Source: Nitrospirota bacterium (lineage in GTDB: Bacteria; Nitrospirota; UBA9217). From it: 64,000 nt of DNA. The stretch covers positions 1 through 64,000 of the forward strand of contig CAVUHW010000045.1 of the NCBI GenBank assembly GCA_963741205.1, written 5' to 3'. Of this stretch, positions 1,075 through 22,905 are shown in pieces. Made by a program: the position numbers and the translations under genes. A model generated the notes under the pieces. The model was given only the letters and a program-made list of their open reading frames with translations, searched no databases and was not told the DNA's origin. Each line of letters opens with the position of its first letter. Position 1 is the stretch's first letter.

Positions 1075-1110
1075 AAAGGGCCTTCTGACCTCGGGTTGGA
1101 GGGCCCTTTT
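1075..1110 (+). terminator. Intrinsic terminator hairpin, near-identical copy at 9647
   Basis: AAAAGGGCCTTC...GAGGGCCCTTTT inverted repeat after the DsrE-like gene. Confidence 0.75.
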
Positions 1111-1189
1111 CGGTTTGGAGAGAACCTTATTTGCAATCGTAACCTTCAGTGCGCCATCCATCCTCCTACACTTAGAAGTGGTATATAGA

Positions 1190-1345
1190 TAATAAAGAAA
1201 GGCAGGAGAACTTCTTGCATCCTGGGTCTTGGAACCCTTAGTACAGTCTGTTCCCTGCCTCCCTTAGCCATGATAGGTTGATTGGGCCAACGAGCCCTGG
1301 TAACGATGGAGGATTGGTCGGGAGGCAGTTCCTGCCTATCTAAAT
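1190..1345 (+). ncRNA. Candidate IS110 bridge RNA in the left non-coding end
   Basis: Stem AGGCAGG..GAAC/GTTC..CCTGCCT encloses a loop with AGTACAGTC (1240-1248), the reverse complement of the right-end GACTGTACT; boundaries approximate. Confidence 0.5.
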
Positions 1346-1367
1346 TTTAGCATGGGGAGGGGGATTT

Positions 1368-2558
1368 ATGGAAAACTTAATCGTTGGTGTCGATGTTTCC
1401 AAAGAGTCCTTTTCTGCAGCCGGCCTTGATGGCAAAGGGACGCGTTGTTTCTCTGAAGAATACACCATGGACAGTGATGGGTTTTCGAAGTTTCTGGCAA
1501 CGATCAAGGCACAACAGCCTGATGTCTCCCATGTCATTGTCGGCATGGAGTCTACTGGCATCTACCACCTCAATCTCTTTTCTTATCTCACAGCACAGGG
1601 CATCCATGCCGTGGTCATTAATCCGCTGTTGATCGCGAACTTTGCCAAACTGTCACTCCGGAAGACCAAGACCGACAAGAAAGATGCCATGACGATCGCC
1701 CAGTTCCTGCTGGCACACAGGGATAAGATCTCACAGATGTCCATTAGCCAGGACATGCAGGATATGCGCGACCTGGCCCGGGAGCGGGAGTCCATAAGTC
1801 ATTTGATTACCGCGATAAAGACAGAGATCAAGGGGGTCTTGCAAACGACCTTCCCTGAGCTTGAGCGCCTATGCAACGTCTTTACGGTCATCATGCTTGC
1901 TTTTTTGCAAGAGTTCCCCTCCGCTCGCTTGATCAATTTGGCTAAGCCGCGGGCGATAGCGAAAGCCATGGAACCACACGGTTCAGGGAGCAGGATATCC
2001 ACCTTTACGGCTGATGATGTAATCAAGCTGGCCAAGAACTCGGTTGGGACGGTCAGCCCGGCCAAAGAGGCCATCCTGCGGGGCAAGATATCGACGCTGT
2101 TGCATCTTGAAGGTCGCCTGGATGAGTTGATGGCGATGCTTACTGACTACTGCACCTCCCTGATGGTGGAAGACCTGGAAATCGTAACATCTGTCGAAGG
2201 CATCAGCAACGGGACCGGGACTACTTTTCTGTCTGAGATAGGGGGTATCAAGAACTATGAGACGCACAAAAAACTGATTGCATACGCAGGGGTTGATCCA
2301 ACGGTGTATCAATCAGGCAAGTACGAGGGGGCAAGCAAGATCTCGAAGAGAGGAAATAAGCATCTTCGACACGTGCTGTGGCTTATGACGTCTAGTGTGA
2401 TTATGCATAACAAAAATTACCAGGCGTATTATCAAAAGAAGATACGGGCTGGACTGCCCTATAAGAAGGCGGTCATGGCAACAATGCATAAGCTTATTCG
2501 GATGCTTTTTGCAATGCTGTCACATAGACAGTTTTACCTTGAATCGCGTGTGAGCTGA
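1368..2558 (+). CDS. IS110 family transposase (DEDD recombinase)
   Basis: GVDVSK, MESTG, KTDKKDA (DEDD) and C-terminal AGVDP..YQSG..ISKRGN motifs; intact 396 aa. Confidence 0.97.
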   Translation: MENLIVGVDVSKESFSAAGLDGKGTRCFSEEYTMDSDGFSKFLATIKAQQPDVSHVIVGMESTGIYHLNLFSYLTAQGIHAVVINPLLIANFAKLSLRKTKTDKKDAMTIAQFLLAHRDKISQMSISQDMQDMRDLARERESISHLITAIKTEIKGVLQTTFPELERLCNVFTVIMLAFLQEFPSARLINLAKPRAIAKAMEPHGSGSRISTFTADDVIKLAKNSVGTVSPAKEAILRGKISTLLHLEGRLDELMAMLTDYCTSLMVEDLEIVTSVEGISNGTGTTFLSEIGGIKNYETHKKLIAYAGVDPTVYQSGKYEGASKISKRGNKHLRHVLWLMTSSVIMHNKNYQAYYQKKIRAGLPYKKAVMATMHKLIRMLFAMLSHRQFYLESRVS

Positions 2559-2827
2559 ATATAGTTGACTGTACTTCACGCCAGTTGCCAATCACGGATC
2601 TGCGCACTTCATGCCGAATTTGTTAATCTCACAACGACAAATTACACGCCTCCCGGCATTGACGTTTGCTGAGGACCTGCATGTTGATATTACATATCTC
2701 TCTTAATTACCATCGAGGGGAAAGTGATACCCAATTTCCCCGGATTTTGGTATCATAAACTGGTGACGTGCACAGACCTGACCCTTAGGCATGTAGGCAG
2801 CCGGTCCGGGCCGGCAAGGAGGGATGT

Positions 2828-3617
2828 ATGACGAAGTTCAACTGCAGTCTCTGCGGTGCCGTATGGCAGCGGCAGGGGAAAACAAATTGCTGGAGCTCCG
2901 ACCCGGCGCAGGCGCCGGCCAAACCTGGCTACTGCCCGTCCAGGGAACATATGCCGCTCATTAACAAGGCTTTCGCACAGTATCGTGGCACGTCCGAGGA
3001 CGCGAAGATATCGCGGGTGGCGACGCAGGTTGAGGGCATGTGCTACCAGCGGACGCAGGGAAGCCAGACAATCAACGCGCGGTGGACGCGGGTGGAAGAC
3101 ACCATCGCCTTCGCAAAACTGATGAGGTACCAGAGGATCGGGCTTGCGACCTGTATCGGACTACTCGACGAAACAAACCGGCTTGCGACTGATCCTCCGT
3201 GCGCAGGGCTTCGAACCGCTTTCCGTTTGCTGCAAGGCGGGCAGCAAGGACAAGCTTGAACTGGGAATAGCGGAGGCGGACAAGGTAAGGCCGGGGACAT
3301 TCGAGCCGGCATGCAATCCCATCGCCCAGGCGCGGCTTCTGAACAAAGCGAAGACGGACATGAACATCATCATCGGGCTGTGCGTGGGGCACGACATGCT
3401 GTTCAGCAAGCATTCTGCGGCGCCGGTCACGACGCTCGTGGTCAAGGACCGGGTGACCGGCCACAACCCGGTCAGCGTTCTGTACGGGCAGAACTTCTAT
3501 TACAAACGGCTGCAGGGGGCAGCCCTGGAAGTGCCGTCCCCGGGGCCCGGGGACGCACTGGAGAAAGCGTCAAGGAAGCAGCCGATCAAAGCCCGCAGAC
3601 AACGAGGGCGCTCTTAG
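2828..3617 (+). CDS. DUF1847 domain-containing (putative metal-binding) protein, frameshifted
   Basis: TRVEDTIAFAK, GLATCIGL, SVCCKAGS, CNPIAQA, GLCVGHD, VKDRV motifs. Confidence 0.85.
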
Positions 3618-3789
3618 GGGCTTTACCGTTCAATCATTCCCGGGTCGGACCAGGCTGAGCCGCCGATGTTCAAAGGATATCGTTCCAACAATGGGCGTTT
3701 TTAAGCCGCTCTTTTTTAACGCATCGTAGTGCCCTGACAGGATGAGCTGAGACATTCGGCAGTGTACAGCGGCAGATGATCTACTACTG

Positions 3790-3880
3790 GTAGAAATGGT
3801 CAGTCTCAATGACATCCTGAAGGTGTGGAGTTTCCGCTCCTTGCAACAATCAATACTACATCCGAAATTTATTAACTGAT
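3790..3880 (+). repeat. Island intergenic repeat, degenerate copy
   Basis: CATCCTGAAGGTGTG at 3813, then TACTACATCCGAAATTTATTAACT about 35 nt later. Confidence 0.55.
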
Positions 3881-4081
3881 ACTCCGCAAATACCCCTCTC
3901 CGGTGATTGACAAGCATGTCGAGCAGGACTATAGTCTACTGAATCATTGAAACAAGCACAGCACAATCATTGCTAAACGAAATAACATCGGAAATCTGGT
4001 GTCATCTAGGGGGCTAGCCAATACCGGATTTCCGGAGATATCGAGGGGGCTAATCATCCCCTTGTTGTCCGAGGATATCAA

Positions 4082-4639
4082 ATGAACTATCTAAAAGAGA
4101 TCCAGTCAATAATTATGAAACAAGGATTCCTTGTCTTCGCCATACTTCTCAGCACTTGCGCCACGAACAGCCAACCGTCGCTCCTGGCGGTGGTCCCCCA
4201 GGTGGACCTGGGCCGCTACCTCGGCACCTGGTATGAGATCGCGAGTTTCCCCCAGCGGTTCCAGAAGGGCTGCACCGACTCGCGGGCTGAGTACCGCCTC
4301 CGCGACGACGGCGCCATCGACGTGCTGAACAGCTGCCTCCGGGACGGAAAGGTGGACACGGCGAAAGGCAAGGCCTGGGTCGTGGACCGGATCACGAATG
4401 CGAAGCTGAAGGTCTCGTTCTTCTGGCCTTTCCGTGGCGATTACTGGATCATCGACCTCGGCAAGGACTACGAGTTCGCCGTGGTCTCGGCGCCGTCCAT
4501 GAAGTACCTCTGGATACTTTCGCGGACGCCCAAGATGGAGGAACATCGGTACCAAGAGATCGTCGGCCGTCTGAAGGAACGCGGGTTCGACATGGTGAAC
4601 CTCAAACGCACGGATCAGGGGAACCGGACAGACCGGTGA
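4082..4639 (+). CDS. blc: Lipocalin family protein (Blc-like)
   Basis: VDLGRYLGTWYEIA, KLKVSFFWPFRGDYWII, YLWILSRTP motifs. Confidence 0.92.
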   Translation: MNYLKEIQSIIMKQGFLVFAILLSTCATNSQPSLLAVVPQVDLGRYLGTWYEIASFPQRFQKGCTDSRAEYRLRDDGAIDVLNSCLRDGKVDTAKGKAWVVDRITNAKLKVSFFWPFRGDYWIIDLGKDYEFAVVSAPSMKYLWILSRTPKMEEHRYQEIVGRLKERGFDMVNLKRTDQGNRTDR

Positions 4640-4802
4640 GAGAACATATCAGCCGGTAGCTTGAAATAGGCTGCAAACATAGAGACCTTTTATGTCTTTC
4701 CCACCATTCTTTGTACAGCCAGCAGCATTACCACTGCCGCAATAAGTAGAGAAAGCTCAAGCCGCATCGATCAATCGCGAGCACCGTGTCTGTTCCCCCT
4801 TA

Positions 4803-4970
4803 GTTGAGATCCTCATGTGGACTAAAAGAGGTGAGTTACCCAGTAGTAAAGGGAAAGGGGATTCTCTGTTGACTCTTTCCACTCGTAACGTTCAGCGCGA
4901 TTAGCATCCTGTAACATTGGAGTTTCCATTCCTAGAAACGATCAACAGTTCATCTCATATTTGACAGCAT
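4803..4970 (+). repeat. Direct repeat of 5225-5333, including an island repeat copy
   Basis: GAGATCCTCA...AAAAGAGGTGAGTTACC...GATTCTCTGTTGAC.CTTTCCACTCGTAAC..CATCCT occurs twice. Confidence 0.8.
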
Positions 4971-5059
4971 TAAACCACTATATAAGCCAATCGACAACCC
5001 TCACCGTAGTGATCACGCCACCGTCGTGATCATTGACATCACCGTAAATCAGGAATATA

Positions 5060-5311
5060 TTCGTTGTTAACGCCTTCACACGCTCCGATAGATGGATAGC
5101 GGATAAACCGGACAAAGACGTCGCAATACCAGACGATGTACGAGAATGTCTTTATGAACGGATGGTCTCGTTTCCTGATTTGACCCAGATGGAGAGCCCG
5201 GTTGACATGCAGCTTAAAGCGGCAGTCGAGATCCTCACGCAGATTAAAAGAGGTGAGTTACCGAGTAGTAAAGGAAAGGGGGGATTCTCTGTTGACACTT
5301 TCCACTCGTAA
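5060..5311 (+). pseudogene. Possible remnant of an S41 (CtpA-like) peptidase C-terminus
   Basis: Broken frames read LLTPSHAPIDG* then KPDKDV...DMQLKAAVEIL, resembling S41A C-terminal motifs. Confidence 0.35.
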
Positions 5312-5461
5312 CATTCGGCGCGGTTAGCATCCTGAAGGTGTGAAATTCCAAATCCTCTCAAAATGTGCACTTCATGTCGAACTTCTCATGATTGCGCGAC
5401 GATCAACCATAATCATAAACGAAAAGTGTCACTCATTTTAGCTCATTTTGGTATCATAAAC
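5308..5461 (+). repeat. Island intergenic repeat copy
   Basis: GTAAC 5308, CATCCT 5328, CACTTC 34 nt later, TTTTGGTATCATAAA at 5446. Confidence 0.75.
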
Positions 5462-5703
5462 TTCTATCGGTACCACTACCAGGATTACGAACACAACGGC
5501 CTTGTCAGGGACATGTCTGCGAGAGGCCTCTATCTCAGCGCAGGCTTCCAGTTCTGATACTGAGACCTCATGCTCAACGAGAAGGGTGAGCGGGCCGAGG
5601 CTATGCTATACTTGAGGCGGCATCCACAGTAGCAGAAGCCGAGGCGCTCCTATAAGGAAGTATTAGAGTAGGAAACAAGGTTTTATAAATAAGGAGAAAT
5701 GAT

Positions 5704-8152
5704 ATGAAGCAGATTTCGAAGATGGTCAGTATTCTGCTGCTGCAAGTAGCTATCCTTGCCATCGGAGCAGGCTCGTATGCTGCAGACTCGTCACCCGCAG
5801 CAACGCCGGACCGCACGGTGCTGCCGGTTCAGGAGCCGAAACCGCCGTTGTACAAGGAGCTGGATGCGCGGAACGCGAAAATGCCGCCAAACTTCGAGGT
5901 CAAGGCGCCTGCCGGAGCGCCGAACGTGGTCATCATCCTGATCGACGACCTGGGCTTCGGCGCACCGGCACCTTCGGCGGCCCGATCCCCACGCCGACGC
6001 TGGATCGTCTGGCGCAAGAAGGGACTGCGCTACAACAACTTCCATACCACGGCGCTGTGCTCGCCGACGCGGGCGGCGCTTAAGTCCGGCCGCAACCACC
6101 ACACGGTGAACATGGGCTTCATCACCGAGATGGCGACCGGTTTCCCGGCGCCACCGGCCAGATCCCCAACGCGACGGCTCCGGTGGCGGAAATGCTTCGC
6201 CTGAACGGCTACAGCACCGCGGCCTTCGGCAAGTGGCACGAGACCGCCGCCTGGGAGACCAGCGTGTCCGGGCCCTTCGACCGCTGGCCGACGCACCAGG
6301 GCTTTGACAAGTTCTACGGCTTCCTCGGCGGCGAGACCAATCAGTGGGCGCCGTACCTCTTCGACGGCGTCACGCAGGTCGAGCTGCCGAAGGACCCGAA
6401 CTACCACTTCATGACCGACATGACCGACAAGGCGGTGGCCTGGATCAAGTACCAGAAGGCCCTGACGCCCGACAAGCCGTTCTTCGTCTATTTTGCGCCG
6501 GGCGCCACGCACGCGCCGCACCACGTGCCGAAGGAGTGGATCGCCAAGTGGAAGGGCAAGTTCGACCAGGGCTGGGACAAGATGCGGGAGGAGACCTTTG
6601 CCCGGCAGATCAAGGTGGGCATCATCCCGCCGGGCACCAAGCTGGCGCCGAAACCGGCGGCGATCAAGGACTGGGACAAGCTCTCGGCCGACGAGAAGCG
6701 CCTGTTCGCCCACCAGGCCGAAGTGTTCGCCGCCTATCGCCGAGTACACCGACACGAGATCGGCCGGATGCTCAAGGCCGTCGAGGACGACCGGCGAGGC
6801 CGACAACACCCTTGTCTTCTACATCGCCGGCGACAACGGCACCAGCGCTGAAGGCGGCGAGAACGGCATGTTCAACGAGTACACCTACTTCAACGGCGTG
6901 CCGGAGAAGGTCGCGGACATGCTGAAGGTGCATGGACAAGTGGGGCGGCCCCGAGACCTACCCGCACATGGCCGCGGGCTGGGCGGTGGCCTTGGACTCG
7001 CCGTTCACCTGGACCAAGCAGGTCGCCTCGGACTTCGGCGGCACCCGCAACGGCATGGTGGTCCACTGGCCCAAGGGGATCAAGGCGAAGAACGAGATGC
7101 GCAGCCAGTTCAGCCACGTGATCGACGTGGCGCCGACCATCCTGGAGGCGGCCGGGCTGCCGGAGCCCAAGGTGGTCGACGGCACGCCGCAGATCCCGAT
7201 GGAGGGCGTGAGCATGGCCTACACCTTCGACGACGCCAAGGCGAAGGAGCGCCACACCACGCAGTACTTCGAGATCGCCGGCAACCGCGCCATCTACCAC
7301 GACGGCTGGTTTGCGCGCACGATCCACCGGGCGCCGTGGGAGACGAAGCCGCGCACGACCGCTGGACAAGGATGTCTGGGAGCTGTACGACGTGCGCGAC
7401 GACTTCAGCCTGCGCGACGACCTCGCCGCGAAAAACCCGAAGAAGCTCGCGGAGATGCAGGCACTCTTCATGAAAGAGGCCGAGGAAGTACCACGTGCTG
7501 CCGATCGACGACCGCGTCTTCGAGCGCATCGATCGCCGCGCTGGTCGGGCGTCCCGACCTGATGGCCGGCCGCACCTCGCTGACGCTCGCCGAGGGCATG
7601 ACCGGCATGATGGAGAACGTCTTCATCAACGTGAAGAACAAGTCCAAGACCATCACTGCGGAGATCGAGGTGCCGGCGGGCGGCGCGAACGGCACGATCA
7701 TCGCGCAGGGCGGCCGCTTCGGCGGCTGGTCGCTCTACGTGAAGGACGGCGTTCCGGCGTACGACTACAACTTCCTCGGCCTGCAGCGCTATCGGTCGCC
7801 TCGACCAAGAAGCTTGCCCCGGGCAAGGACGACGGTCAAGTTCGACTTCGCCTATGACGGCGGCGGGCCCGGCAAGGGCGGCAATGGCACGCTGTTCGTC
7901 AACAACGAGAAGGTCGCCGAAGGCAGGATCGAGCGCACGCAGGCCGGGATGTTCTCGGCCGACGAGACGGCCGATGTGGGCATCGATCTCGGCACGCCGG
8001 TGGTCGAGGCCATCGGTTCGGAGGCGAAGTCGAAGTTCACCGGCCACATCCCGAAGGTGACGGTCGAGGTCAAACCGATGAAGGCGACCGACAAGGCTGA
8101 GGCTGAGAAGGTACAGAAGGAAGCGGCCACGAAGAAGGCGATGTCGGATTGA
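5704..8152 (+). CDS. Secreted arylsulfatase (Cys-type FGly sulfatase), multiple frameshifts
   Basis: Signal peptide; PNVVIILIDDLG, CSPTRAAL signature, GKWH, ATHAPH, GDNG, ELYD; C-terminal QGGRFGGWSLY domain. Confidence 0.9.
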
Positions 8153-8298
8153 TTTTAACACCGGAAAGGCAAGGGTGACATGCTCTTTCCTTTCCGGTGA
8201 AGTTCTTCAATTCAACGCCTGAGAGGACCTCGCGCTCCGGCACCCACTCTGGGGGAGCGTCAGTGAAATGAACCTGCGGAACTACCAAAATTAATAAA

Positions 8299-8769: not shown

Positions 8770-8964
8770 AGTAAGCAAAAGCGCAAGGGGTAAAGATAAA
8801 GGGACGTTGGTTTCTCATGTTGACTATCTCAACGTATAATGATCTGCCCTAACTAGCCATCCTTGGAACGGCCGACCGATCAATTCATTGTTATAGCGAT
8901 ATATGTTCCTCCCCATTATAGATTTTCTTTAGCAGCCATGCCGGACTAGAACGTTAATTTCCGA

Positions 8965-9035
8965 CTAAAACATTCGGCGTGACGAGCATCCTGAATGTGT
9001 GAAATTCCGAATCCTCTCACAATCAACACTTCATT
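8965..9035 (+). repeat. Island intergenic repeat copy
   Basis: AAAACATTCGGCGTG..CATCCTGAATGTGTGAAATTCC..CACTTCAT, closely similar to 5308-5375. Confidence 0.75.
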
Positions 9036-9329
9036 TTGTATATGTCAACAGCGACTGAGTATCTCGTCGCAACTACGCCCACCTCCAATTGATAAGAGCG
9101 TAAGTCTATCTGCACACTACACAATTAATATTGGTCAAGGGCTACGATAATTAGTGATTATTCCCTTGACCAAAGAAATCAATTCTGCAATAATCTGAGC
9201 GCATCTTGCTGACCTACCACACCAACGAAATATCACAGGATCTGCTCGGACGAAAATGAAAACTTAGTTGTTAGTGCTATTGTTATTCATAAGAGTAAAG
9301 CACATTCGACAAATCCAAAGGAGGATAAA

Positions 9330-9618: not shown

Positions 9619-9646
9619 CAGATATCACCTGTGAGCAATCATCGGC

Positions 9647-9800
9647 AAAAGGGCCTTCTGACCTCGGGTTGGAAGGCCCTTTTCGGTTTGAGAGAACCAT
9701 ATTTGCGATAGTAACATTCAGCGTGTTTAACTTCCTATATCTCACGAGGTTATTATTCTTAGCAACTCGTCAATTTCGAACCCGAGTATGACAGCTACAC
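9647..9800 (+). repeat. Terminator plus island repeat copy, homologous to 1075-1173
   Basis: AAAAGGGCCTTCTGACCTCGGGTTGGA.GGCCCTTTTCGGTTTG..GTAACATTCAGCGTG shared with 1075. Confidence 0.85.
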
Positions 9801-10050: not shown

Positions 10051-11578
10051 ATGATGAGAAGAGCATGGATGGAGAAAACGGTTCTTGCGGCTGTGATGAT
10101 CGTCAGCATGGCGCTGCCGGGTTGGGCGGAATCGCCCAAGATGAAGATGAGCACGACATCCCGCCGGGCATCGGCTCGCCGGACAAGGTGGAGACCCGCC
10201 TGGGTACGCTCAAGTTCTTTGACGGCTTTCCGGACAAGGCTACCGTCGAGAAGCTCTACGACAACCTCGACTTCCAGCGCGCCGTGCAGGCCTATCTTCT
10301 GGCGCTGCCGCCGGTGAGCCAGGTGGCCAATCGCAAGGCGATCCTCGAGGCTGGGGCCGGCCAACACGACCGTGCCGATCTTCGAGACAACTGATGGACT
10401 CGCGGTCGATTTTCCTGACCGCGAACAACAACACCGCGTACAGCTGGATGTGGCTCGATCTGCGCAACGGTCCGCTGGTCGTCGAGGTTCCGCCGAAGGT
10501 CCTCGGGGTGATCGACGACATGTGGTATCACTGGGTCGCCGATATCGGCATCACGGGGCCGGACAAGGGCCAGGGCGGCAAGTACCTGCTGCTGCCGCCC
10601 GGTTACAAGGGCGAGGTCCGGATGGCTACTTCATCGTGCGGTCGCCGACGTTCAGCATCTGGATCCCCTGGCGCAGTTTCCTGGTCGAACGGCGACCCGA
10701 AGCCGGGCGTGGACCTCGTCAAGAAGTCCACGAAGATCTATCCGCTGTCCAGGCGGCCAATCCGCCGAAGCATGAAATTCGTCGACGTTTCCGGGCAAGG
10801 CAGTTCAACACGGTCGCCCCGGCGGATTACTCGTTCTGGGAGTATCTCAACCAGGTCGTACAGGAGGAGCCGACCGAGTCGCTAGACCCGGTCACGCTGG
10901 GCTTCTATGCGTCGATCGGCATTCAGAAGGGCAAGCCATTCGCTCCCGATGCGCGGATGAAGAAGATCCTGACCGAGGCGGCAGCGGTGGGCGACGCGAC
11001 GGCCCGCGCCATCGCGTACCGCATTCGCGGAGCAAGGAAGATTACTACTACCGCACGAACAGCGCTTGGCGCCTGCCGTTCGTTGGCGGCTACAAGTTCG
11101 AGGATCAGCCGGTGCGCGTCATTCTGGACGGTTACTCATGTTCTACTTCTACGCCACCGGCGTAACGCCGGCGATGGAAGCGAAGATGGTCGGGCGAGGG
11201 TCGCAATATGCCTGGCGGCTTCGTCGACTGCCAAAGGCAATCCGCTGGACGGCGGCAAGAACTACAGGCTGCACCTGCCGCCCAATGTCCCGGTGCAAGG
11301 ACTTCTGGTCGGTCATCCTCTACAACAACCAGACCCGCTCGATGCTCCAGACCGACCAGCAGTGCCCGAGCGTGAGCAGCCAGACCAAGGGACTCCTGGT
11401 CAATGCGGACGGTTCGGTCGACGTCTAGTTCGGCCCGAAGGCGCCGCCCGGCAAGGAGAAGAACTGGGTGCAGACCGTCCCCGGCAAGGGCTGGAACACG
11501 ATTCTGCGCCTCTATGGCCCGCTGCAGCCATGGTTCGACAAGACCTGGCGGCCGGGCGAGATCGAGTTGGTTAAATAG
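10051..11578 (+). CDS. Secreted DUF1254/DUF1214 protein (frameshifts; in-frame TAG at 11426)
   Basis: ETRLGTLKFFDGFP, TANNNTAY, GPDKGQGGKYLLLPPGY, FWSVILY, NADGSVDV.FGP, LRLYGP. Confidence 0.85.
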
Positions 11579-11723
11579 GAGAACAAACAGCTAAAAAACA
11601 TCCGGTTTTAGCAGCCGATCCTCATGTTCGACTGCTGAACCGGATATAAACTTCAACTTGAAATTGATAATGGATCAAGTGCCTATCGAGTGGGTAAAAA
11701 TGAGGGTAATAACTCATAGAACC

Positions 11724-12118: not shown

Positions 12119-12267
12119 GTAATTCAGCGTCGAGCCTATGGTTTACGAGATTAAGAATATCTTCGTCTCAAGGTCTTGACCTGCATGCTTCCTGAACTCT
12201 GACGTAAAACAACTAAAAAGGACCCACTCAGAAAGCACTTGACCCTTAATAATAATTGCTATCCTCC

Positions 12268-12416
12268 AAACTCACACCTTGTAGGTGACGCTGATAAATA
12301 TTAGGATGCCGAAGATTAATAAATTCCAGTCGAAACTTTCATCGCGCCCTCCATCCTGAAGTTCTCGCCCGCCGATATCGTTCGAACTCTCAACTTCATC
12401 TCGAATTTGTTAAACT
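12268..12416 (+). repeat. Island intergenic repeat copy with CACCT-N3-AGGTG palindrome
   Basis: Closely similar to 17374-17520. Confidence 0.85.
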
Positions 12417-12513
12417 AAAAACGTGAGGTTCACGGTTGCCCCCCCGGCGTGTCGGAAGATCAGAAAGGGGGGCGTCGCAGCCCTTATCATTCGTGGAGTA
12501 ACGCTTCTGTTTC

Positions 12514-13894: not shown

Positions 13895-13926
13895 AAGGAA
13901 AGGGGGGGCCTTGCGGCCCCCCCTCC
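13895..13926 (-). terminator. Hairpin between the oxidase and cytochrome genes
   Basis: GGGGGGGCC-TTGC-GGCCCCCCC followed by a T-rich tail on the minus strand. Confidence 0.55.
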
Positions 13927-13956
13927 GTGGAACTGCGTATCTGTAATACGGAGCGG

Positions 13957-16111: not shown

Positions 16112-16576
16112 AAAAAATTACATTATACATCGTCTAAAAACTCGGCTCTCCTTCCGGCTGCAATGAGCGTTCCCGCTCAACCGCAATCTCTCATCCTGAA
16201 TTCTCTGGTTCACCTCCTTAGCTGTCGATGACATAGATACGGACCGGAAGATAGGTGATCCGGTTCACAGAGTAACGATTTCGTGCAGATTTTACGCTTC
16301 GCACCTTGCAGGATCACACGTGATTAGCTTCATTAAATATAAAGCTAACGCGGCAGCATCAGATTTCAATGAGTAAAAATACCCATTTATAAAAAAAGAG
16401 TGAAAAGAAATTTAATTTGTTTTTCCCCATTGTAAGAACCTAGCAATTTGATAGCCAATCATTAATGAGGGATTTGTCGTGATTCCATGTATTGATAGCC
16501 CGGAAGGCCTCGTCCGATATGGATCGGATGGGCATCTGCGATGATTTGCGTTTAACTTCAGAAAAAGCGAAATTAT

Positions 16577-17206
16577 ATGGTCACCCTTTTGTCGTGTTTC
16601 ATTCATTTCCACATAGAATTTGAGTCTAACGCGCTTATATTGATAGCCAATACTCTTGTTGCATGCGGCGCCACAGCCAAAGGAATAACGAGGATGAGCC
16701 GAAGCGAGAGAACCGATGTGTTCACGGAAGTGTCGGGAGAAGGGCCACTACCAGAGGGGTATGCTGATATCGTCATCAGAGCGTCTCTCAAGACGCAGCT
16801 AGAGGGGTATTACCCTATTGAAGCGAAAAGGTCCTCAAGCGGCAAGCCCGAATACCCTTTCCTGTTAAACATAGACGGGCAGGCGGCTCTATGGAAAGTG
16901 AAAGGACTGATACATCAACTCCCAGAGAATGTTAACGGTAAAACAAACCCCGATCCTGAGGCAGGCGAAGGAATGAGATACATGCTTGAAAAGAAAGTCC
17001 GCGTTGCCGCAGGTGCTCACAAGGTGTTTTTCGGGCTGCCTGGAGAACCGTATCATGCAACAACGGAGCTTCGTACGGAGAGCGGAGAATCATATATACT
17101 AGAGTTCAAACCACAATACCGGCATAAAACAATACCAACACGAATTCCCACATCTTTACGGGGTATTGATAACTATGAGGTTATGTTTACAATTCAAAAA
17201 CGCTGA
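16577..17206 (+). CDS. Hypothetical protein, possibly a lipoprotein
   Basis: 209-aa ORF with LVAC lipobox-like motif; start uncertain. Confidence 0.55.
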   Translation: MVTLLSCFIHFHIEFESNALILIANTLVACGATAKGITRMSRSERTDVFTEVSGEGPLPEGYADIVIRASLKTQLEGYYPIEAKRSSSGKPEYPFLLNIDGQAALWKVKGLIHQLPENVNGKTNPDPEAGEGMRYMLEKKVRVAAGAHKVFFGLPGEPYHATTELRTESGESYILEFKPQYRHKTIPTRIPTSLRGIDNYEVMFTIQKR

Positions 17207-17373
17207 CAGCTAATTGACAGTTAAGTCAGTCCCGTACATGGGTGATAAATAAATTGCAGACTTTAGCGATATGGATTATTTCCATTGCCTAGTTCTACTA
17301 TCTCGGAGGTGCCATGCCGGATTCCATCATGTTAAGTATTACAACTGGAAATTGATAGTATTTGTTGCCAACC

Positions 17374-17660
17374 AAATTCACACCTTGTAGGTGACGCTGA
17401 TAAATCTAAGGATGCTGAATATTAATAAATTCCAGTCGAAACTATCATCGCGCCCTCCATCCTGAAAGTCGCAACCATATCGTTTATCAATATTGCACAC
17501 TTCCCACCGAAATTGTTAATCCCACTACGATAAATCTCACGCTTCCTGGCATCGATGCTTGCTGCGGACCTCAATGCTGATGGTTATTCTTGCAAGTCTT
17601 TCTCAATTACCCTCAAGGGGAAAGTTTACCCAATTTCACTAGATTTTGGTATTATAAATT
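17374..17660 (+). repeat. Island intergenic repeat, longest copy
   Basis: Palindrome 17381-17393, GAAAC 17438, CATCCT 17458, CACTTC 34 nt later, TTTTGGTATTATAAA 17644; left half matches the 12.3 kb copy, right half the 2.6-2.76 kb copy. Confidence 0.85.
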
Positions 17661-17931
17661 GATTTCGTGGACAAGCTGAAAAATTGAATTTTCCCCATGA
17701 TTCTGGTCTGAGGAATATAGTCTTACCGCTGATGGGGAACATCTCTCCCGGGGGCGGATCTTTGAACTTTGAAATTTCACGGGATGAGCGCAGCCTTGAT
17801 AACGTCCGCTCTAATCAGTGATGCGGAGCAAACTAGTAACAAACAGGAAGAACGGTTCAGGGCTGGGCTATCATTAGGACAAAGCGCAGGCGTTTCGCTG
17901 AATTCTTCAAGGGATAAGGGAGTATCCGTTT

Positions 17932-19869
17932 ATGAAAAAAAGCCTCAAGAGTAAACTGATAGCCAGCTTCGGTTTTTGTATAGTCCTGATCGCAATGATC
18001 GTTGGACTTAACTATTCATCCTTGCAGAAACTTCAAAAACTCTATAACAAGGCGGTGCAAAGCACCGTGAACATGGAAGTGGCTACTGATGCCCAGCACA
18101 TCGGCGAAGACTTATACATGCTCATTGCCAATGCTGTTATCAACCGCGATTTGGCTAAAATGGAGAAGGATTGGGCCTCAGGAAAGAAAGAAGGTTTGGC
18201 GAAGCTCACGAAAGTAGCTGATGCAGCCGATACTCCGGTAGAGCTCGAAAATGTTAGAAAGGCACAGGAAGCAGTCGATGACATAATACTCATCTTCGAA
18301 CAAAAAATGGTCCCGCTTATGAAGAAGGAACCGGGAGTATCCAGGGCGTTAATCGACCTGGATGCCCGAATCGACAATAAGATAACAACCATCAACGTTG
18401 CCATGCAGAAGGTAGCGCAGTCCATGTCTGATGAAAATCAGAAAGCGGCCAAAGAATTTCATGAAGTCCTTACAAATGCTACTGAATCCACACTTGTCCT
18501 TTTACTGATCGGGATACTGTCCGTAATCGTTATATCCACATTGATAACCCGATGGATCGTCCATCCCCTTGCGGAAGTTACCCGGGCTGCGACGGAGATG
18601 GAAAAAGGAAACTACCTCGTTGAGGTGAAGCACCAATCGATGGATGAAACCGGAATACTTGCCAGCGCCTTCAGAAGTATGTCGGAACAAGTGAAAAAAC
18701 GGACAGTCGAACTGGAGAATGCGAACGAACGCCTCCTGGTTGAGATCAGCGAGCGCAAGCTGGCTGAGGAGAAACTGCGTGAAAGCGAGTTGCGGTACCG
18801 CAGTCTCGTGGAGGATTCTCCCGATGCCATCGTCATCCACGATGGTTGGAAATATTTATTTGCCAACAGAGCCGCTGCGTCCATGCTGGGCGCGAGGAAC
18901 GCTAAAGATATTGTGGGTCGCGATGTTTATTCCACCATTCACCCCGACTATCAAAATATCGTCAGGGAACGAATCGATATGATCAGCAGCCAGGGGGTTA
19001 CATCTCCCCTGCGTGAGATCAAGATGTTGCGCCTTGACGGTCCGGCGTTCGATGCCGAGACCACAGGGGCCTCTGTTATCCTGGAGGGTATGCGGGTGTT
19101 CCAAATAATCATCCACGATATTTCGGCACGCAAAAAGGCGGACGTGGAAATCTTGGAACTCGGCAGGGAACTGGAAGTCTATGCAGCGCAGCTAGAAGAT
19201 ACCAACAAGGAGCTGGAGGCCTTTGTCTACTCCGTTTCTCACGATCTGCGGGCGCCTCTTCGGACCATATCGGGTTTCGCCAAAATACTAAAAGAGGATT
19301 ACGCGGAAAAGATTGACACCCAGGGAAAGGATTATGTTGAACGCGTCTGGAACGGATCCGAACGCATGATCCGGCTTATCGAAGATCTTCTGCGGCTTTC
19401 GAAGATTACGCGGCAGGAAATCGACCGTATGGATTTCGATCTCGGCAAGTTGGCCGAAAGCGTTGTCGATAACATACGTCGGACTTCGCCGGGACAGAGT
19501 GTTGAGGTTGTGTTACCCCGTGGTCTGCGGGCATTCGTAGACCCAAATTTGATAAGAATCGCTTTTGAGAACCTGTTCGAGAACGCCTGGAAATTTTCAT
19601 CAAAAAAGGAAAACGCCAGGATCGAGTTCGGGACTCTGGAGCAAGATGGAAAGACGGTATTCTTCATCAGAGACAACGGCACAGGATTTGACAAGACGTA
19701 TGCAAATAAATTGTTTAAGCCTTTCCATCGGCTGCATAAGGACACGGAATTTCCGGGTACCGGCATCGGCCTCTCGATCGTCCAGCGGATCATTCACCGT
19801 CATGGCGGAACGATTTGGGCAGAAGGAGAAGTGGGTGAGGGCGCGATATTTTATTTTACTCTGGGATAA
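17932..19869 (+). CDS. Membrane sensor histidine kinase (HAMP-PAS-HisKA-HATPase)
   Basis: Two TM segments, HAMP, PAS, SVSHDLRAPL H-box, NLFENAWKF, DNGTGF, GTGIGL. Confidence 0.95.
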   Translation: MKKSLKSKLIASFGFCIVLIAMIVGLNYSSLQKLQKLYNKAVQSTVNMEVATDAQHIGEDLYMLIANAVINRDLAKMEKDWASGKKEGLAKLTKVADAADTPVELENVRKAQEAVDDIILIFEQKMVPLMKKEPGVSRALIDLDARIDNKITTINVAMQKVAQSMSDENQKAAKEFHEVLTNATESTLVLLLIGILSVIVISTLITRWIVHPLAEVTRAATEMEKGNYLVEVKHQSMDETGILASAFRSMSEQVKKRTVELENANERLLVEISERKLAEEKLRESELRYRSLVEDSPDAIVIHDGWKYLFANRAAASMLGARNAKDIVGRDVYSTIHPDYQNIVRERIDMISSQGVTSPLREIKMLRLDGPAFDAETTGASVILEGMRVFQIIIHDISARKKADVEILELGRELEVYAAQLEDTNKELEAFVYSVSHDLRAPLRTISGFAKILKEDYAEKIDTQGKDYVERVWNGSERMIRLIEDLLRLSKITRQEIDRMDFDLGKLAESVVDNIRRTSPGQSVEVVLPRGLRAFVDPNLIRIAFENLFENAWKFSSKKENARIEFGTLEQDGKTVFFIRDNGTGFDKTYANKLFKPFHRLHKDTEFPGTGIGLSIVQRIIHRHGGTIWAEGEVGEGAIFYFTLG

Positions 19870-19973
19870 CATTGGGGGACCCAGATGAACGCCCTGACAC
19901 CTGACAGATAGTCGATGAGACAGAAGACAATCGGCCGGTATTTTCTCCTCACAATGCTTTTTCCCAGTGGAAT

Positions 19974-20066
19974 ATGAAGCAATCTACCATACTCATTCTC
20001 GACGACAATGAAGACGTTGTCGTACTGACGAAAGCGATCATTTATAAAATCCGATATGTCGTTTAA
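19974..20066 (+). pseudogene. Truncated response-regulator receiver remnant
   Basis: MKQSTILILDDNEDVVVLTKAII then stop after 30 codons. Confidence 0.5.
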
Positions 20067-20092
20067 ACAATCGACTTCATGTAGAATTGGCA

Positions 20093-20126
20093 CAAAAAAA
20101 AGGGGATGGCTTTTCCAAGCCATCCC
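20093..20126 (-). terminator. Intrinsic terminator of small secreted protein 1
   Basis: GGGGATGGC/GCCATCCCC hairpin with poly-T on the minus strand. Confidence 0.8.
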
Positions 20127-20153
20127 CATATTTACCTTTCCTTCTCCATCCTC

Positions 20154-20516
20154 TCAGTCTACGGCAAATCCCGCTTCCTCATCGAAGAAGAAGAAGTCAC
20201 TTCGAGGGATAAGCGGATTAATCACCGGTTTCACAGGCGGCTTTGGCGCAGTTTTGGGTGCAAAATTAAAACCATTCACGACCCCTGGCCGACCGATACC
20301 AGCAATACCTGCAAACCCCGGCTGACCGATACCACCGACACCCGCGCCTGCAAAGTCTGGCCGACCGATACCCGGATTACCAATGCCTACGCTCGGTGTT
20401 GCATTCGCCGCGAAAGCACTGCTGCTCATAACGAGAGTTACTCCGACAAACAACGCTGCGATGATAAACCCGAACATCATTATGTTTTTCATCGTTTTGG
20501 TTGTCATAACATTCAC
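20154..20516 (-). CDS. Small secreted Gly/Pro-rich protein 1
   Basis: RBS GGAGG, signal peptide ending SSSAFA, GIGxPG repeats; promoter TTGACA-17-TATTCT at 20617-20589. Confidence 0.75.
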   Translation of the reverse strand: MNVMTTKTMKNIMMFGFIIAALFVGVTLVMSSSAFAANATPSVGIGNPGIGRPDFAGAGVGGIGQPGFAGIAGIGRPGVVNGFNFAPKTAPKPPVKPVINPLIPRSDFFFFDEEAGFAVD

Positions 20517-21232
20517 CTCCTTGCAGAACTCAAGGAAGATTTTCGCGAGTAATCAAATAAATTAATCGCTCGGGACCTTCTTAATTCAAGAATACTTCTA
20601 ATCTGTAGTAGTGTCAACGAGTCTATAAACAACGAAACTAATGATACTAAAGTCGGGATCCGATTCGATTATGCGAAGTGATTGAACTGCTTAGAACCTA
20701 TATCAAAATCGATCTTTTCTCGTGATTCGATGAACGTGATGGGTGGTTGGACCGAAACGAGGGGTTGGATCCCGCCGGAATGGTGGCTCGGATTGGGCTG
20801 GAATACACATCATAGGTGCTATCGTTTTCGGAATCTTTATTTTTTTACTAAAGAAGTTTAAACAATAGACCCGCTGTAGACTGCACTTGGAGGTCATCTT
20901 CTGATTTTATCGTCGGCATGTTTCAACCTGGAATTCGTCACTTTTCAAACGAGCGCAGAAACGAAGTAGTATGCGGAGCCGATGCCGGCCGGAAAGCAGA
21001 AGGCTGTTTTATCCTCGTTGAAGTTTGCGGTGAGGACATCATCTTGAAGTTCAGACCAACTTCAAGCTCGCAGTCTGCGTACTTCATGTCGAAAGTAAAA
21101 GAGAGTTTCCGAACCTGGGCTTGGAAATCACAAACACTGGGAAGCAGTTCCTTAACCCTTACTCAAAGCCGAAAAACAATGCTTCGTCGGCATCGATGAC
21201 GACCGGATGGATGAACGGCCCGACGCCTGGTT

Positions 21233-21262
21233 AAAAAAAAAGGCCGCACACTTTGCGGCCTT
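21233..21262 (-). terminator. Intrinsic terminator of small secreted protein 2
   Basis: AAGGCCGCA/TGCGGCCTT hairpin with poly-T on the minus strand. Confidence 0.8.
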
Positions 21263-21321
21263 CCTGCGATTCATGCGAAACCATGCCTGCCTGACACTGG
21301 GGCGCGAGAACTGTCCGAAAA

Positions 21322-21675
21322 CTATCGGACAGGCGGGCCCGCAGGCGGCACTGGGGCTGGCCTTACTGGTACGTTGACGACACCAGGCCTTCCCGGGATG
21401 CTGATGATACCAGGACGGGGAATTGCAACAACACCATTTAAACCAGGTCCGCCTACGCCCTGAACACCATTTAAACCAGGCCTGGCTACAATCGTCCGCT
21501 GTGCAGCGACACCAGCCCCCTGATTCACGACCGCCGTCCGCTGTGCAGCGACACCAGCCCCCTGATTCACGACCGCTGCATTCGCTGGCCTGCTCATCAT
21601 AAACATCTCACCGACCGTTAGAAAAGCCAACAGGACGGCAAGTATAACCTTATTTGTTCCTGAATTCATCAACAT
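21322..21675 (-). CDS. Small secreted Gly/Pro-rich protein 2
   Basis: Signal peptide ending SRPANA; exact 42-bp tandem duplication 21493-21576 (AVVNQGAGVAAQRT x2); promoter TTGACA-18-TATACT. Confidence 0.75.
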   Translation of the reverse strand: MLMNSGTNKVILAVLLAFLTVGEMFMMSRPANAAVVNQGAGVAAQRTAVVNQGAGVAAQRTIVARPGLNGVQGVGGPGLNGVVAIPRPGIISIPGRPGVVNVPVRPAPVPPAGPPVR

Positions 21676-21878
21676 AGTAAATCACTTCCTCTCGTCGGGT
21701 TGCCATGTTGACTATTCTAACTTCGGCCTTACCCGAAAGTTTTCATTTTGTTACTTAATTAAAGTATATGTCTGCCCTATCAGGTGTGTCAAGGGACGGA
21801 AAAGGTATAGAAAATGCAAATCAGTCAAACTCTAGAGACGTCTTCTTTCAGCTCTTGGCCGCGATCAGGTACGTCCTC

Positions 21879-22220
21879 CTAATCGACCAAGCCTGGATTC
21901 ACGCCCAGCCCCAGCCCGATGCCCAGCCCATCGGCATCGATGAAAGGATTGAAGAATGGGTTAAAAGCCGGCCGAATCAGGAACGGATTAAAAATAGGCG
22001 GTCTCACCAAGCCCAACCCCGGAGTAAATCCAAGAGGCGGTCTCGGAGCCAGCCCCAGCGGTGCAACTCCACTCGGAAGCGCGGGACCAATGAATGTGGT
22101 GCCGACTGTCGCTGCGGGCGGTTCTCCAACGATAATCGCACTCGCCTCACTGCTCATAACAAAAGCTGCGCCAATCAGCACCATGGTCCAGATCATGAGA
22201 AGCTTCATATATTTTTTCAT
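21879..22220 (-). CDS. Small secreted Gly/Pro-rich protein 3
   Basis: MKKYMK..signal peptide ending SSEASA; FNPF repeats; promoter TTGACA-17-TATCCT at 22318-22290. Confidence 0.75.
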   Translation of the reverse strand: MKKYMKLLMIWTMVLIGAAFVMSSEASAIIVGEPPAATVGTTFIGPALPSGVAPLGLAPRPPLGFTPGLGLVRPPIFNPFLIRPAFNPFFNPFIDADGLGIGLGLGVNPGLVD

Positions 22221-22835
22221 TGTCGTAATTTCCTTTCTGGGGGCCCATCTACTTGCATAGTTTACAAACATCTTAACTCCCCTGTAAAGAGGATATAATG
22301 AATCCTGTATCTTGTCAAGGGGGGGCATTGAATGTTGCAGTAATAATCATTTACTGAATGGTTGGGCAGCAGGGGCGTCAGCAAATTTACAGGGGAAGTT
22401 GAGCTACAAAGGGTAATATAATGAAATATCGTCTTTTTCGCTTTGCGACGGCAAAGAAAGCCTTCACATTGGATTTATCGTTCTGTCCGTTTCTTAAAAA
22501 GCCTATTAATATCCATCGGTAACAGGCCCTTTTCATAAAGACGATGCGACTGGTCTTTCGGGTGGCGGACCAGGCCCGTTCCCCGGGGAAAACCTGTTGG
22601 GTCACCAATTTGCCTGTACTCGGAAATAGACAGGCAGATGTCCCCGGTGTTGTGTCGTCCGGGAAGTTTGCAGATTTCTAGCCGATCGCATGCGCAGTTG
22701 TAGGCTGTCGCCGCTAAATACGATCATGAAAAAAAATAAATTCTGGTAGTCTTTGCTTTTGTCACTATATTGGCACTACAGACTAAATGGATTTCTCGCG
22801 AATTCCAAAACGCGAAACTCCTGTGAAGTACACAT

Positions 22836-22905
22836 AGAAATTGATAATATTTTTAATGCTCTGAAATCACACCTTGTAGGTGAAGGTCAGAATGGCGCTG
22901 ATAAT
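22836..22905 (+). repeat. Partial island repeat copy nearest tRNA-Sec
   Basis: GAAATTGATA...CACACCTTGTAGGTGA shared with 17348-17395. Confidence 0.65.

Follow-up and report, generated by a model that had tools for sequence, protein, structure and literature searches.

We identified, in a window of 64,000 nucleotides of DNA from a Nitrospirota bacterium, a family of short intergenic elements that appears to be a lineage-specific mosaic repeat, may act as a recombination hot spot for accessory gene modules, and is perhaps serviced by IS110-type recombinases. Judged from sequence, this explanation is our preferred one, although we are evenly divided on it as a whole. The parts of the unit have been re-assorted among copies with breakpoints in a short core and at a box to its right, paralogous gene blocks end on the core, and several lineages of IS110/IS1111 insertion sequences (IS) have the central CT of the core as their insertion point, with fixed orientation, both in this genome and in other species. 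A first-pass annotation of the window had interpreted the elements as recombination sites of a gene-capture array, and our analysis partly supports this interpretation.

Each repeat unit spans approximately 130 nucleotides. From left to right, its parts are the left arm, the 10-bp core (C(A/T)TCCTGAAG), a middle segment (about 35 nucleotides) belonging to one of a set of discrete types, and the right box. The core is nearly palindromic around a central CT dinucleotide, and the right box, which begins ACTTCATgtCGAA, repeats the core region in inverted and shortened form. A palindromic box precedes the unit in some copies, and about 9 of 87 are followed by a 150-nucleotide extension containing an extended -10-like promoter motif. 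The features of the window are listed below.

1074–1110, + strand: terminator-like hairpin that travels with one left-arm type (also at 9647–9683 and on four other contigs)
1127–1164, + strand: copy 1, left arm and core to CATCCT, interrupted by an insertion sequence
1165–2568, + strand: IS110-family insertion sequence, type 1, with CT at both junctions
1368–2558: DEDD transposase gene of the type-1 IS, preceded by a 203-nucleotide non-coding region
2569–2774, + strand: copy 1, right half, comprising middle segment, right box and the 150-nucleotide extension, which terminates in a -10-like motif (TGGTATCAT) 54 nucleotides upstream of a DUF1847 gene
3766–3912, + strand: copy 2, core at 3813, upstream of a lipocalin gene
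4857–4978, + strand: copy 3, core at 4905
5280–5475, + strand: copy 4, upstream of sulfatase ORFs, core at 5328, extension weak and partial
8932–9052, + strand: copy 5, core at 8987, upstream of an HU-family gene
9699–9740, + strand: copy 6, consisting only of left arm and core (CTTCCT), located after the HU gene and terminator, with unique sequence beyond the core
11647–11672, + strand: lone right-box-like piece, weak (E = 0.98)
12246–12440, + strand: copy 7, core at 12352, preceded by a palindromic box (CACCTTGTAGGTG)
17337–17673, + strand: copy 8, the fullest unit, core at 17458, in the order right-box-like piece, palindromic box, left arm, core, middle segment, right box, 150-nucleotide extension
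20967–21094, + strand: copy 9, core variant CATCTTGAAG
22826–22950, + strand: degenerate last copy about 440 nucleotides from the tRNA, palindromic box kept, core decayed in our reading
23387–23485, - strand: tRNA-Sec

The pattern GWAAC-N15-CWTCCT occurs at 1139, 4885, 5308, 9711, 12332 and 17438, all on the + strand and exactly where the first-pass annotation had placed it; 100 shuffles of the window gave a mean of 0.12 occurrences, and none reached six. Similarly, CATCCTGWA is found nine times compared with 0.81 expected, seven of these being on the + strand between 3.8 and 17.5 kb. A repeat search recovered the AAAAC variant at 8969, the 34-nucleotide gap to CACTTC, and the three copies that end in TTTTGGTAT(C/T)ATAAA (2728–2774, 5429–5475 and 17627–17673). 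The gap in the IS-split copy had been given as 37 nucleotides, but by our reading it is 34 when the CT of the junction is counted once. The weak copy at 3813 is a genuine member (nhmmer E = 1.3e-13), and the copy at 17.4 kb does resemble the 12.3-kb copy leftward and the 2.6–2.78-kb copy rightward. To the right of tRNA-Sec, where no copies had been noticed, there are no profile matches between 23.5 and 91.6 kb of the contig. We added three copies to those already listed: a good one at 20967–21094, the right-box-like piece at 11647–11672, and the degenerate one at approximately 22826–22950. The description as a non-coding, co-oriented mosaic repeat with about one copy per gene module stands.

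An iterated profile applied to the whole genome (4.27 Mb in 50 contigs) gave 87 matches on 21 of the 50 contigs. Their median spacing is 1.8 kb, compared with 49 kb under a uniform spread, and 63 of 66 neighbouring copies share the same orientation. These arrays stand between unrelated accessory gene modules in low-GC islands, and the array of the window fills the tRNA-Sec island. The cargo is unrelated from module to module, small, often without a Pfam family, and varies in per-kb GC from 0.43 to 0.66. A crude ORF caller placed only 53 of 85 downstream ORFs, and 61 of 84 upstream ones, in the same direction as the repeat. The repeat is present in every genome of the genus (14 of 14) and, among the family's other genera, in 5 of 10, with co-oriented clusters likewise present in relatives G001, G002 and G016 (57, 24 and 39 copies, respectively). 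Near-complete relatives also contain scattered copies, and many copies there are tens of kilobases apart; the tRNA-Sec island, to which the repeat had been linked, is only one of its locations. In these same relatives, copy orientation looks tied to chromosome half.

Left arms, middle segments and the parts downstream of them have been combined in many ways. Of the left-arm clusters among the 76 copies that have a core, one of 11 copies and one of 8 are each paired with at least five different middle types. Where left arms are alike and middles unlike (24 pairs), likeness stops at positions +5 to +12 of the core in 20; where middles are alike and left arms unlike (35 pairs), it starts at -2 to +2 in 24. 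Of the 48 pairs whose middles are alike, 35 cease to resemble each other at +40 to +64, which corresponds to the right box, and further limits of likeness are the palindromic box and the end of the extension. Because breakpoints occur at several boxes, a single crossover site is insufficient and general mosaicism fits the data. The earlier proposal of recombination sites holds in that the boxes are breakpoints, but not in the sense of one crossover site. Middle segments are inverted in none of 2850 pairs, compared with 81 in which they match in the forward sense.

Gene blocks share these boundaries in part. An HU gene with its terminator and left arm occurs in six contexts that diverge directly after C(A/T)TCCT, and the 5' limits of the HU paralogues coincide with no box. 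Blocks of paralogous sequence other than IS end within -2 to +9 of the core in 7 of 36 cases, where about 0.14 would be expected. Conserved short boxes that bound re-assorted variable families define an intergenic mosaic repeat of the NIME/BIME kind, and the family described here has this organization. However, it does not consist of back-to-back non-coding units, since the median spacing given above leaves room for ORFs between units.

At least three IS110/IS1111-family lineages are located at the central CT of the core in this genome and three other species. Type-1 IS lie behind (C/T)TCCT on contigs C45 and C10, with a remnant on C5; type-2 IS have identical junctions on C5, C41 and C9 (CATCCT-IS-CTGAAGT); and a third type lies behind CATCCTG on C14. 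The IS-split copy of the window is one of these core insertions. Its DEDD recombinase gene, exactly within the core, had been overlooked when the first-pass annotation stated that no recombinase was visible. At four loci in four other species the right flank always begins CTG(A/T)AG, and a middle segment and right box are recognisable at three. Type-2 IS lie in recognisable units at all three loci of this genome and at three of the four loci in other species, always as TCCT-IS-CTG(A/T)AG. The repeat is a target of IS110/IS1111 elements, which have inserted independently into different copies, using the same nucleotide position and a single orientation.

IS110/IS1111 elements are guided by a seekRNA or bridge RNA. 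A long non-coding region lies ahead of the transposase gene in type 1 and behind it in type 2, and in both types this region has raw 6–8-nucleotide matches to both target flanks, 22–36 nucleotides apart and in opposite senses. These matches are candidate guides, as in the seekRNA model outlined in PMC11187229.

Given that blocks are swapped at the repeat and that RNA-guided IS land there, the system has the appearance of a gene-shuffling array distinct from integrons. We infer that the core may be a site at which double-stranded DNA is broken and rejoined, allowing arrays to exchange gene modules. The DEDD recombinases of the resident IS110/IS1111 elements would be the most economical agents. 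IS copies residing in different cores could recombine homologously and then be excised precisely, or an IS could be excised and re-inserted together with neighbouring modules. Such IS-driven exchange would combine components of known biology. A dedicated recombinase not yet seen is a possible alternative agent; no recombinase gene consistently adjoins the arrays. Neither an excision event nor a circular form nor an empty site was observed, the only public sequencing runs located containing short stretches of other organisms. The repeat may in addition provide or abut promoters.

A possible, though on balance doubtful, alternative is an ordinary intergenic mosaic repeat of the BIME/NIME kind with a regulatory or structural role, its boxes serving as promoters, leaders or protein-binding sites. 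Spread and re-assortment would then be due to homologous recombination and gene conversion between copies, and to IS the sequence, being common and conserved, would simply offer a place to insert safely. Breakpoints at several conserved boxes rather than one are consistent with this explanation, as is a repeat that is genus-wide and partly dispersed in complete relatives. IS1111/IS110 members are described as targeting other repeats, namely REP (ISPa11) and attC (ISKpn4 and ISPst6), in PMC11187229. Moreover, the earlier suggestion that copies supply promoters gains support from some of them, which bear a promoter-like extension ending directly before the next gene, with the extended -10-like motif 50–260 nucleotides ahead of the next ORF, and strong sigma-70-like sites directly follow three copies (3907–3935, 5033–5061 and 9166–9194). 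However, promoter-like sites overall are not enriched (18 compared with 15.4 in shuffles), and the uniform orientation of the repeat spans blocks with genes on the opposite strand, such as that at 12.5–16.1 kb of the window. A 10-bp core is also short for RecA-dependent exchange, yet breakpoints concentrate there, and genes of very different GC have the same boundaries, so some joining mechanism is needed. Even as a regulatory mosaic, the repeat would clearly add a new family to the targets of IS110/IS1111 elements, and would parallel the neisserial mosaic arrays, previously thought to be genus-specific.

We consider it improbable, but of wider consequence, that the arrays represent a second kind of gene cassette, in which the double-stranded 10-bp core is read by IS110/IS1111 guide RNAs and DEDD recombinases shuffle the modules. 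Modules would then be excised, inserted and shuffled together with or between resident IS copies, and the arrays would amount to an RNA-guided equivalent of the integron, shared across a bacterial family. More generally, if modules do move via the core, gene capture in this lineage would dispense with both attC folding and an integron integrase, and RNA-guided recombinases may drive it. Such movement would bear on how accessory genomes are assembled beyond the well-studied Proteobacteria, and bridge-RNA/seekRNA elements would gain a natural function besides selfish insertion.

It is unlikely that the arrays arose by tandem accretion of small integrative modules that lack an integrase, the unit being a hybrid attachment site on which a tyrosine integrase acts in trans. 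Here the core would be accompanied by arm-type sites, the direct repeats TTCnnGTCGAA of left arm and right box, and by our reading this motif does flank the core on both sides. The array also lies within an island bounded by a direct repeat, in that the 3' terminal 24 nucleotides of tRNA-Sec recur perfectly at 11293–11316 of contig C26, probably the other end of the island. However, neither island end has an integrase (the assembly is broken between them), and arrays are present at many loci other than tRNA. A gene for a 279-amino-acid tyrosine recombinase does lie beside a truncated copy of the repeat on C10, but none of the four multi-copy recombinase loci fetched from G001 includes a relative of it. 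In addition, the symmetric part of the core surrounds a 2-bp centre, whereas tyrosine recombinases have an overlap of 6–8 bp.

Very unlikely, in our judgement, is a true integron cassette array lacking its integrase (CALIN), with atypical attC sites served by an IntI encoded on contig C18. That protein scores 378 bits against TIGR02249 (curated cut-off 265) and adjoins a short cassette array, and the small, unrelated cargo, frequently without a Pfam family, resembles that of chromosomal integrons. However, C18 has no copies of the repeat in the profile search, and none of the three array-bearing relatives G001, G002 and G016 has an IntI above the cut-off. An attC site is an imperfect palindrome whose end motifs, R'' (...AAC) and R' (GTT...), pair and are its most conserved parts. 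The unit consensus has dyad symmetry, with 69.9% of cells pairing compared with 33–41% when partners are slid, but covariation is absent: shuffles gave 70.4%, 382 of 500 were at least as high, and pairs changed on both sides number 3 compared with 4.7 expected. The would-be R' GTT is among the least conserved positions (information of 1–3 on a 0–9 scale there and at the last two letters of AAC), and in our reading the outer letters of the unit are unpaired. Top-strand folding of 84–99 nucleotides is weak (-2.8 to -16.5 kcal/mol). Mean fold z values for 40 copies are -0.5 and -0.6 on the two strands, in a test that is itself weak because the intended positive control, the inter-cassette stretches of C18, did not stand out (-0.1 to -2.2). 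The unit is not attC-like, having neither the paired, most conserved ends nor the compensatory fold of attC, in agreement with the first-pass annotation.

Scarcely credible is a decayed gene family or short peptide gene on the minus strand. Many copies are open for 30–45 codons from the ATG complementary to the core CAT and would encode similar peptides (e.g. MxxxLN(V/I)ST...). However, differences between related copies number 118, 160 and 136 at codon positions 1, 2 and 3, with no third-position excess, the information content of the profile lacks a period of three, and about one-third of copies have a stop within 13 codons; one whole subfamily has a stop at codon 13, beyond which its DNA conservation continues. 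A MITE or other non-autonomous transposon was also rejected, as unit ends are ragged, neighbours are co-oriented as described, and the repeat search of the window revealed no terminal inverted repeats around copies.

Several known systems share features with the arrays. The BIMEs and REP sequences of enterobacteria are palindromic units that lie behind genes in alternating orientation. The present repeat is likewise an intergenic mosaic of short motifs targeted by IS elements, but it is co-oriented and is not a stable hairpin. NIMEs, in which 20-bp dRS3 inverted repeats flank RS families, are similar as portrayed in PMC1797815 in that short conserved boxes surround variable segments falling into families, occur in arrays near variable genes, are proposed recombination substrates, and serve as integration sites for an element-encoded transposase or recombinase. 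They differ in sequence and phylum, and in lying back to back, whereas the units described here are strictly co-oriented and separated by gene modules of 1–3 kb; PMC1797815 states that NIME arrays had not been observed outside Neisseria. The nearly identical 150-nucleotide promoter-like stretch before non-homologous genes recalls the reused or 'mobile' promoters of PMC3575422, but the small fraction of copies that have it leaves the rest unexplained by promoter reuse of that kind. The fixed position and orientation of IS within the repeat, and the long non-coding regions with their short matches to both target flanks, parallel the repeat-targeting IS1111/IS110 elements presented in PMC11187229, although the target repeat here is new. 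Unlike integrons, the arrays have a repeat without attC fold, covariation or conserved AAC...GTT pair, modules that often have their own promoters, and an IntI that is unlinked in this genome and, at the curated cut-off, absent from three array-bearing relatives. On our best reading, the array nevertheless resembles an integron array in outcome: as in integron arrays and CALINs, there is about one co-oriented site per small, unrelated and often unknown module, each site is a mosaic of both neighbouring modules, and IS1111-family elements target the sites.

The window covers contig C45 from its start to 64 kb, in an assembly of 4.27 Mb and 50 contigs that is 84% complete. Left of tRNA-Sec, GC content per kb varies from 0.43 to 0.66, and the open reading frames (ORFs), called with crude scripts and compared with Pfam, are mutually unrelated. 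They encode an IS110-family transposase, DUF1847, a lipocalin, an HU-family protein, a PAS/HAMP histidine kinase and, from the minus strand, multihaem cytochromes and a multicopper oxidase; several have no Pfam family. Features of the region are as follows.

1165-2568, type 1 insertion sequence (IS), with a non-coding region before its gene
2828-3658, two ORFs (2828-3259 and 3311-3658), only the first covered by the DUF1847 match; the gene may be split, because the DNA match to relatives spans both (2825-3536)
5704-8152, sulfatase across three overlapping or adjacent ORFs (5704-6204, 6183-6851 and 6932-8152), within a block of 65-66% GC; the division may reflect a frameshift or an assembly problem
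21322-21675, minus strand, ORF containing a perfect 42-nt tandem duplication (21493-21576)
23387-23485, minus strand, tRNA-Sec
29261-29433, plus strand, match to a group II intron domain (RF02001, 105 bits), to the right of the tRNA-Sec island
65374-66154, just beyond the window on C45, two adjoining frames (145 and 243 aa) that match tyrosine recombinases and look frameshifted

An intergenic repeat of about 130 nt recurs in this island. The pair of short boxes at fixed spacing by which the first-pass annotation had recognized it is found six times, exactly where it had been placed, against 0.12 expected, and the core nonamer nine times in the window, against 0.81 expected. A repeat finder recovered the same repeat families, including the three promoter-like ends, as well as the left/right mosaic composition of the copy at 17.4 kb. 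An nhmmer profile seeded with this copy and iterated to convergence (E up to 1e-3) gave 87 matches on 21 contigs of the whole genome. Eight of these lie in the island and none in the remaining 68 kb of the contig right of tRNA-Sec, in agreement with the first-pass annotation. The even genome-wide spread that would have spoken against its proposed gene-capture array was not found, the median spacing being 1.8 kb versus 49 kb if copies were uniform. Gaps between neighbouring copies are 3 kb or less in 48 of 66 cases, and neighbours share the same orientation in 63 of 66.

The co-oriented architecture of these arrays is established. The largest clusters are those of C5 (15 copies, each in plus orientation), C41 (11, likewise plus), C9 (8, all minus), C10, C14 and C40, and they lie mostly on small contigs of lower GC that begin or break off within an array. 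Cargo in these arrays is as varied as in the window and includes CAP, MscL, OmpA, response regulator, GGDEF, PKD/Lcl, methyltransferase, non-specific endonuclease, cytochrome P460, beta-barrel OMP, DUF6064 and radical SAM proteins, together with many ORFs without a family.

The alignment of copies and the information content of the profile divide the repeat into the following parts.

optional palindromic box, CACCTTGTAGGTG
left arm, conserved at T, TTC and G-A positions
core, C(A/T)TCCTGAAG, the CTTCC form of which is a palindrome centred on CT
middle segment, about 35 nt, of roughly eight discrete types
right box, around TTC-N5-GAA
150-nt extension, behind nine copies, with a sharp end after the -10-like motif TGGTATCAT and about 15 further conserved nucleotides; its tip lies 50-260 nt upstream of the next ORF

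Lone pieces at 9701 and 11647 prompted the idea of a payload between core and right box, which we dropped. With a short profile for each part, left-core matches were paired in 34 cases and 'solo' in 37; the right-box profile lacks the sensitivity to settle the matter, since a right box is visible in the alignment for most of the solo copies. A reading of GAAAC-N16-CCTGA as an ECF-type promoter was set aside because its AAC letters are poorly conserved. An inversion switch was rejected, as middle segments never occur in inverted form.

With a sequence-only covariance model built from 27 copies, the unit was detected in all 14 members of the genus and, outside it, in 5 of 10 genomes from other genera in the family; the model found none in 16 genomes of other families in the phylum. 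Co-oriented clusters are also present in the relatives G001 (e.g. 11 copies, all minus, within 40 kb of its contig C8) and G016, a different genus. In the near-complete genomes of G001 and G002, many copies are far apart, and by eye the two halves of the chromosome seem to differ in the orientation of their copies. The arrays are not confined to tRNA-Sec. In the relative G007, an array starts beside the gene that in the genome under study precedes a YchF-like gene (as read from the N-terminal sequence), and in G002, where a whole tRNA-Sec and a second copy of its 5' half stand 105 kb apart, no unit was found between the two. The 5'-half copy is 50 nt long and lies near the gene that flanks tRNA-Sec in our genome. 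The same flanking gene is 25, 105 and 84 kb from tRNA-Sec in G001, G002 and G011, respectively, which makes tRNA-Sec a recurrent site of islands in the genus. In our genome, the terminal 24 nt of tRNA-Sec recur at C26:11293-11316, so the island probably runs from contig C26 through unassembled array contigs to the window, with C26:1-11316 as its probable far end. No integrase was found at either end of the island (C26:1-11316 and the tRNA-Sec side). The C26 segment carries, before the 24-nt repeat, a NACHT/AAA-like protein, a TPR/BTAD protein, two subtilase pieces and a 1008-aa CARDB-repeat protein.

Three tyrosine recombinase genes lie in a row at 537-540 kb of contig C8 of G001. The same genome contains, in at least 11 places (e.g. 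its C1:668555-670500), a near-identical element of about 2 kb or more with a 295-aa tyrosine recombinase, several copies of which are near arrays. We set this element aside: it is not in the core, and its enzyme is unrelated to the tyrosine recombinase on C10.

Beyond these genomes, 24 public runs, none of them RNA, each contained only 6-9% of the sampled words. Contigs from four of them (about 100-375 nt, 90-95% likeness) cover mainly the high-GC sulfatase and neighbouring genes, and none bridges the repeat; the metagenome contigs piling up on the sulfatase are of wetland and sediment origin. A pattern scan of genome contigs returned at least 118 stretches from many phyla, which we regard as chance matches because 5 of 12 re-scored loci matched the model, over the pattern itself only. 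Plasmid searches gave no match for the fullest unit and one irrelevant match for the IS. A weak literature search found no description of the repeat; multicopy-sequence lists of possibly related genomes (e.g. the supplements of PMC3543383) may bear on its novelty.

Re-assortment of the repeat, with breakpoints on its short conserved boxes, is established. In the 76 copies whose core is intact, almost any left-arm type may be joined to any middle type. Of 24 pairs with a left arm in common, 20 cease to be alike between +5 and +12 of the core; of 35 pairs with a middle in common, 24 begin to be alike at -2 to +2. An HU gene with its terminator and left arm is found at six locations, with divergence directly after the core. 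We compared about 241 kb of arrays all against all for paralogous blocks, leaving out six matches related to ISs and four tandem ones within genes. Of the 36 block ends that remained, seven fall within -2 to +9 of a core, against about 0.14 expected; three of the seven are HU-related and so not independent. Starting at the core, some blocks reach upstream (C9 and C49, 1.56 kb) and others downstream (C5 and C24, 0.76 kb, with a response-regulator gene). In the cross-species comparison, only coding parts of the cargo are alike and flanks differ; boundary tests on relatives are uninformative because these are different species.

The core is also the programmed target of IS110/IS1111 elements. The IS110-family transposase has 13 matches in the genome, seven of them within arrays. 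A second lineage (type 2, 1614 bp, with a long non-coding region 3' of its gene) has identical junctions in three units, on C5, C41 and C9: the left flank ends in CATCCT and the right starts with CTGAAGT, and CT therefore stands on both sides of the IS. Among its relatives in G011, G001, G010 and G014, the right flank begins with CTG(A/T)AG at all four loci, followed by middle segment and right box at three, and the left flank ends in (C/T)TCCT at both cleanly readable loci. Type 1 stands behind (C/T)TCCT on C45 and C10, with a remnant on C5, and a third type on C14 stands behind CATCCTG. The copy described at first pass as split by an IS110 element is real and belongs to this repeated insertion; it is no accident, because IS junctions recur at the core across units and species. 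A multi-copy element at C32:194-2190, with like pieces on C8, C2 and C15, encodes a 194-aa serine recombinase and a 538-aa ORF and is presumably IS607-like. It adjoins a further IS110-family element, whose end falls right at a repeat unit's palindromic box.

From these patterns we infer that gene modules move through the core. A joining mechanism is called for because precise breakpoints flank the core and genes of disparate GC share the same boundaries. Ten conserved base pairs are few for homologous exchange, and the recombinases that demonstrably act at the central dinucleotide of the core are the resident DEDD enzymes. Junctions of exactly this kind would result if IS copies lodged in different cores recombined and were then precisely excised, or if an IS were excised together with adjoining modules. 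We put the family of explanations in which modules are exchanged through the core at even chances, about one third of which falls to the IS-driven route.

A single crossover site does not account for all breakpoints. In 35 of 48 pairs with a shared middle, the copies are alike only as far as the right box, further ends of likeness lie at the extension tip and the palindromic box, and the 5' limits of the HU paralogues are not at any box. So many breakpoints outside the core favour the main rival, a regulatory or structural mosaic repeat of the neisserial (NIME) or enterobacterial (BIME) kind, which gene conversion would re-assort and in which the ISs would be opportunists. We consider this reading less likely than exchange of modules through the core.

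In line with the first-pass annotation, the repeat does not resemble attC, the integron recombination site. Single-stranded units of 84-99 nt fold weakly (-2.8 to -16.5 kcal/mol for the top strand; mean z about -0.5 for both strands). The folding control, on inter-cassette stretches of C18, separated poorly, and the point is therefore carried by tests of covariation and conservation. Consensus folding of 21 aligned cores gave trivial helices only. The consensus has dyad symmetry between left arm plus core and right box; however, 69.9% of positions pair, no more than the 70.4% obtained after shuffling the 3' letters across sequences, and so no fold is being maintained. Conservation of the would-be GTT is low in the profile. 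The genome does encode an integron integrase on C18 (378 bits, cut-off 265), a contig on which the profile found no repeat copy, and no integrase above the cut-off was found in G001, G002 and G016, which have 57, 24 and 39 copies. The integrase ORF (C18:131982-133454, 490 aa) matches IntI over residues 178-489 and may have a mis-set start or an N-terminal extension; beside it, within the 3 kb above, are three or four small cassettes with palindromic inter-cassette stretches. Nor is the repeat a decayed gene, a possibility raised at first pass: minus-strand reading from an ATG within the core often stays open for 30-45 codons and gives similar peptides, but differences between related copies number 118, 160 and 136 at codon positions 1, 2 and 3, many have an early stop, and one entire subfamily ends at codon 13.

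The non-coding regions of type 1 and type 2 contain short matches to both target flanks in opposite senses, in keeping with the description of seekRNAs in PMC11187229. For NIMEs, the debate between homologous substrate and site for a specific recombinase is on record in PMC1797815, and the repeat identified here poses the same question.
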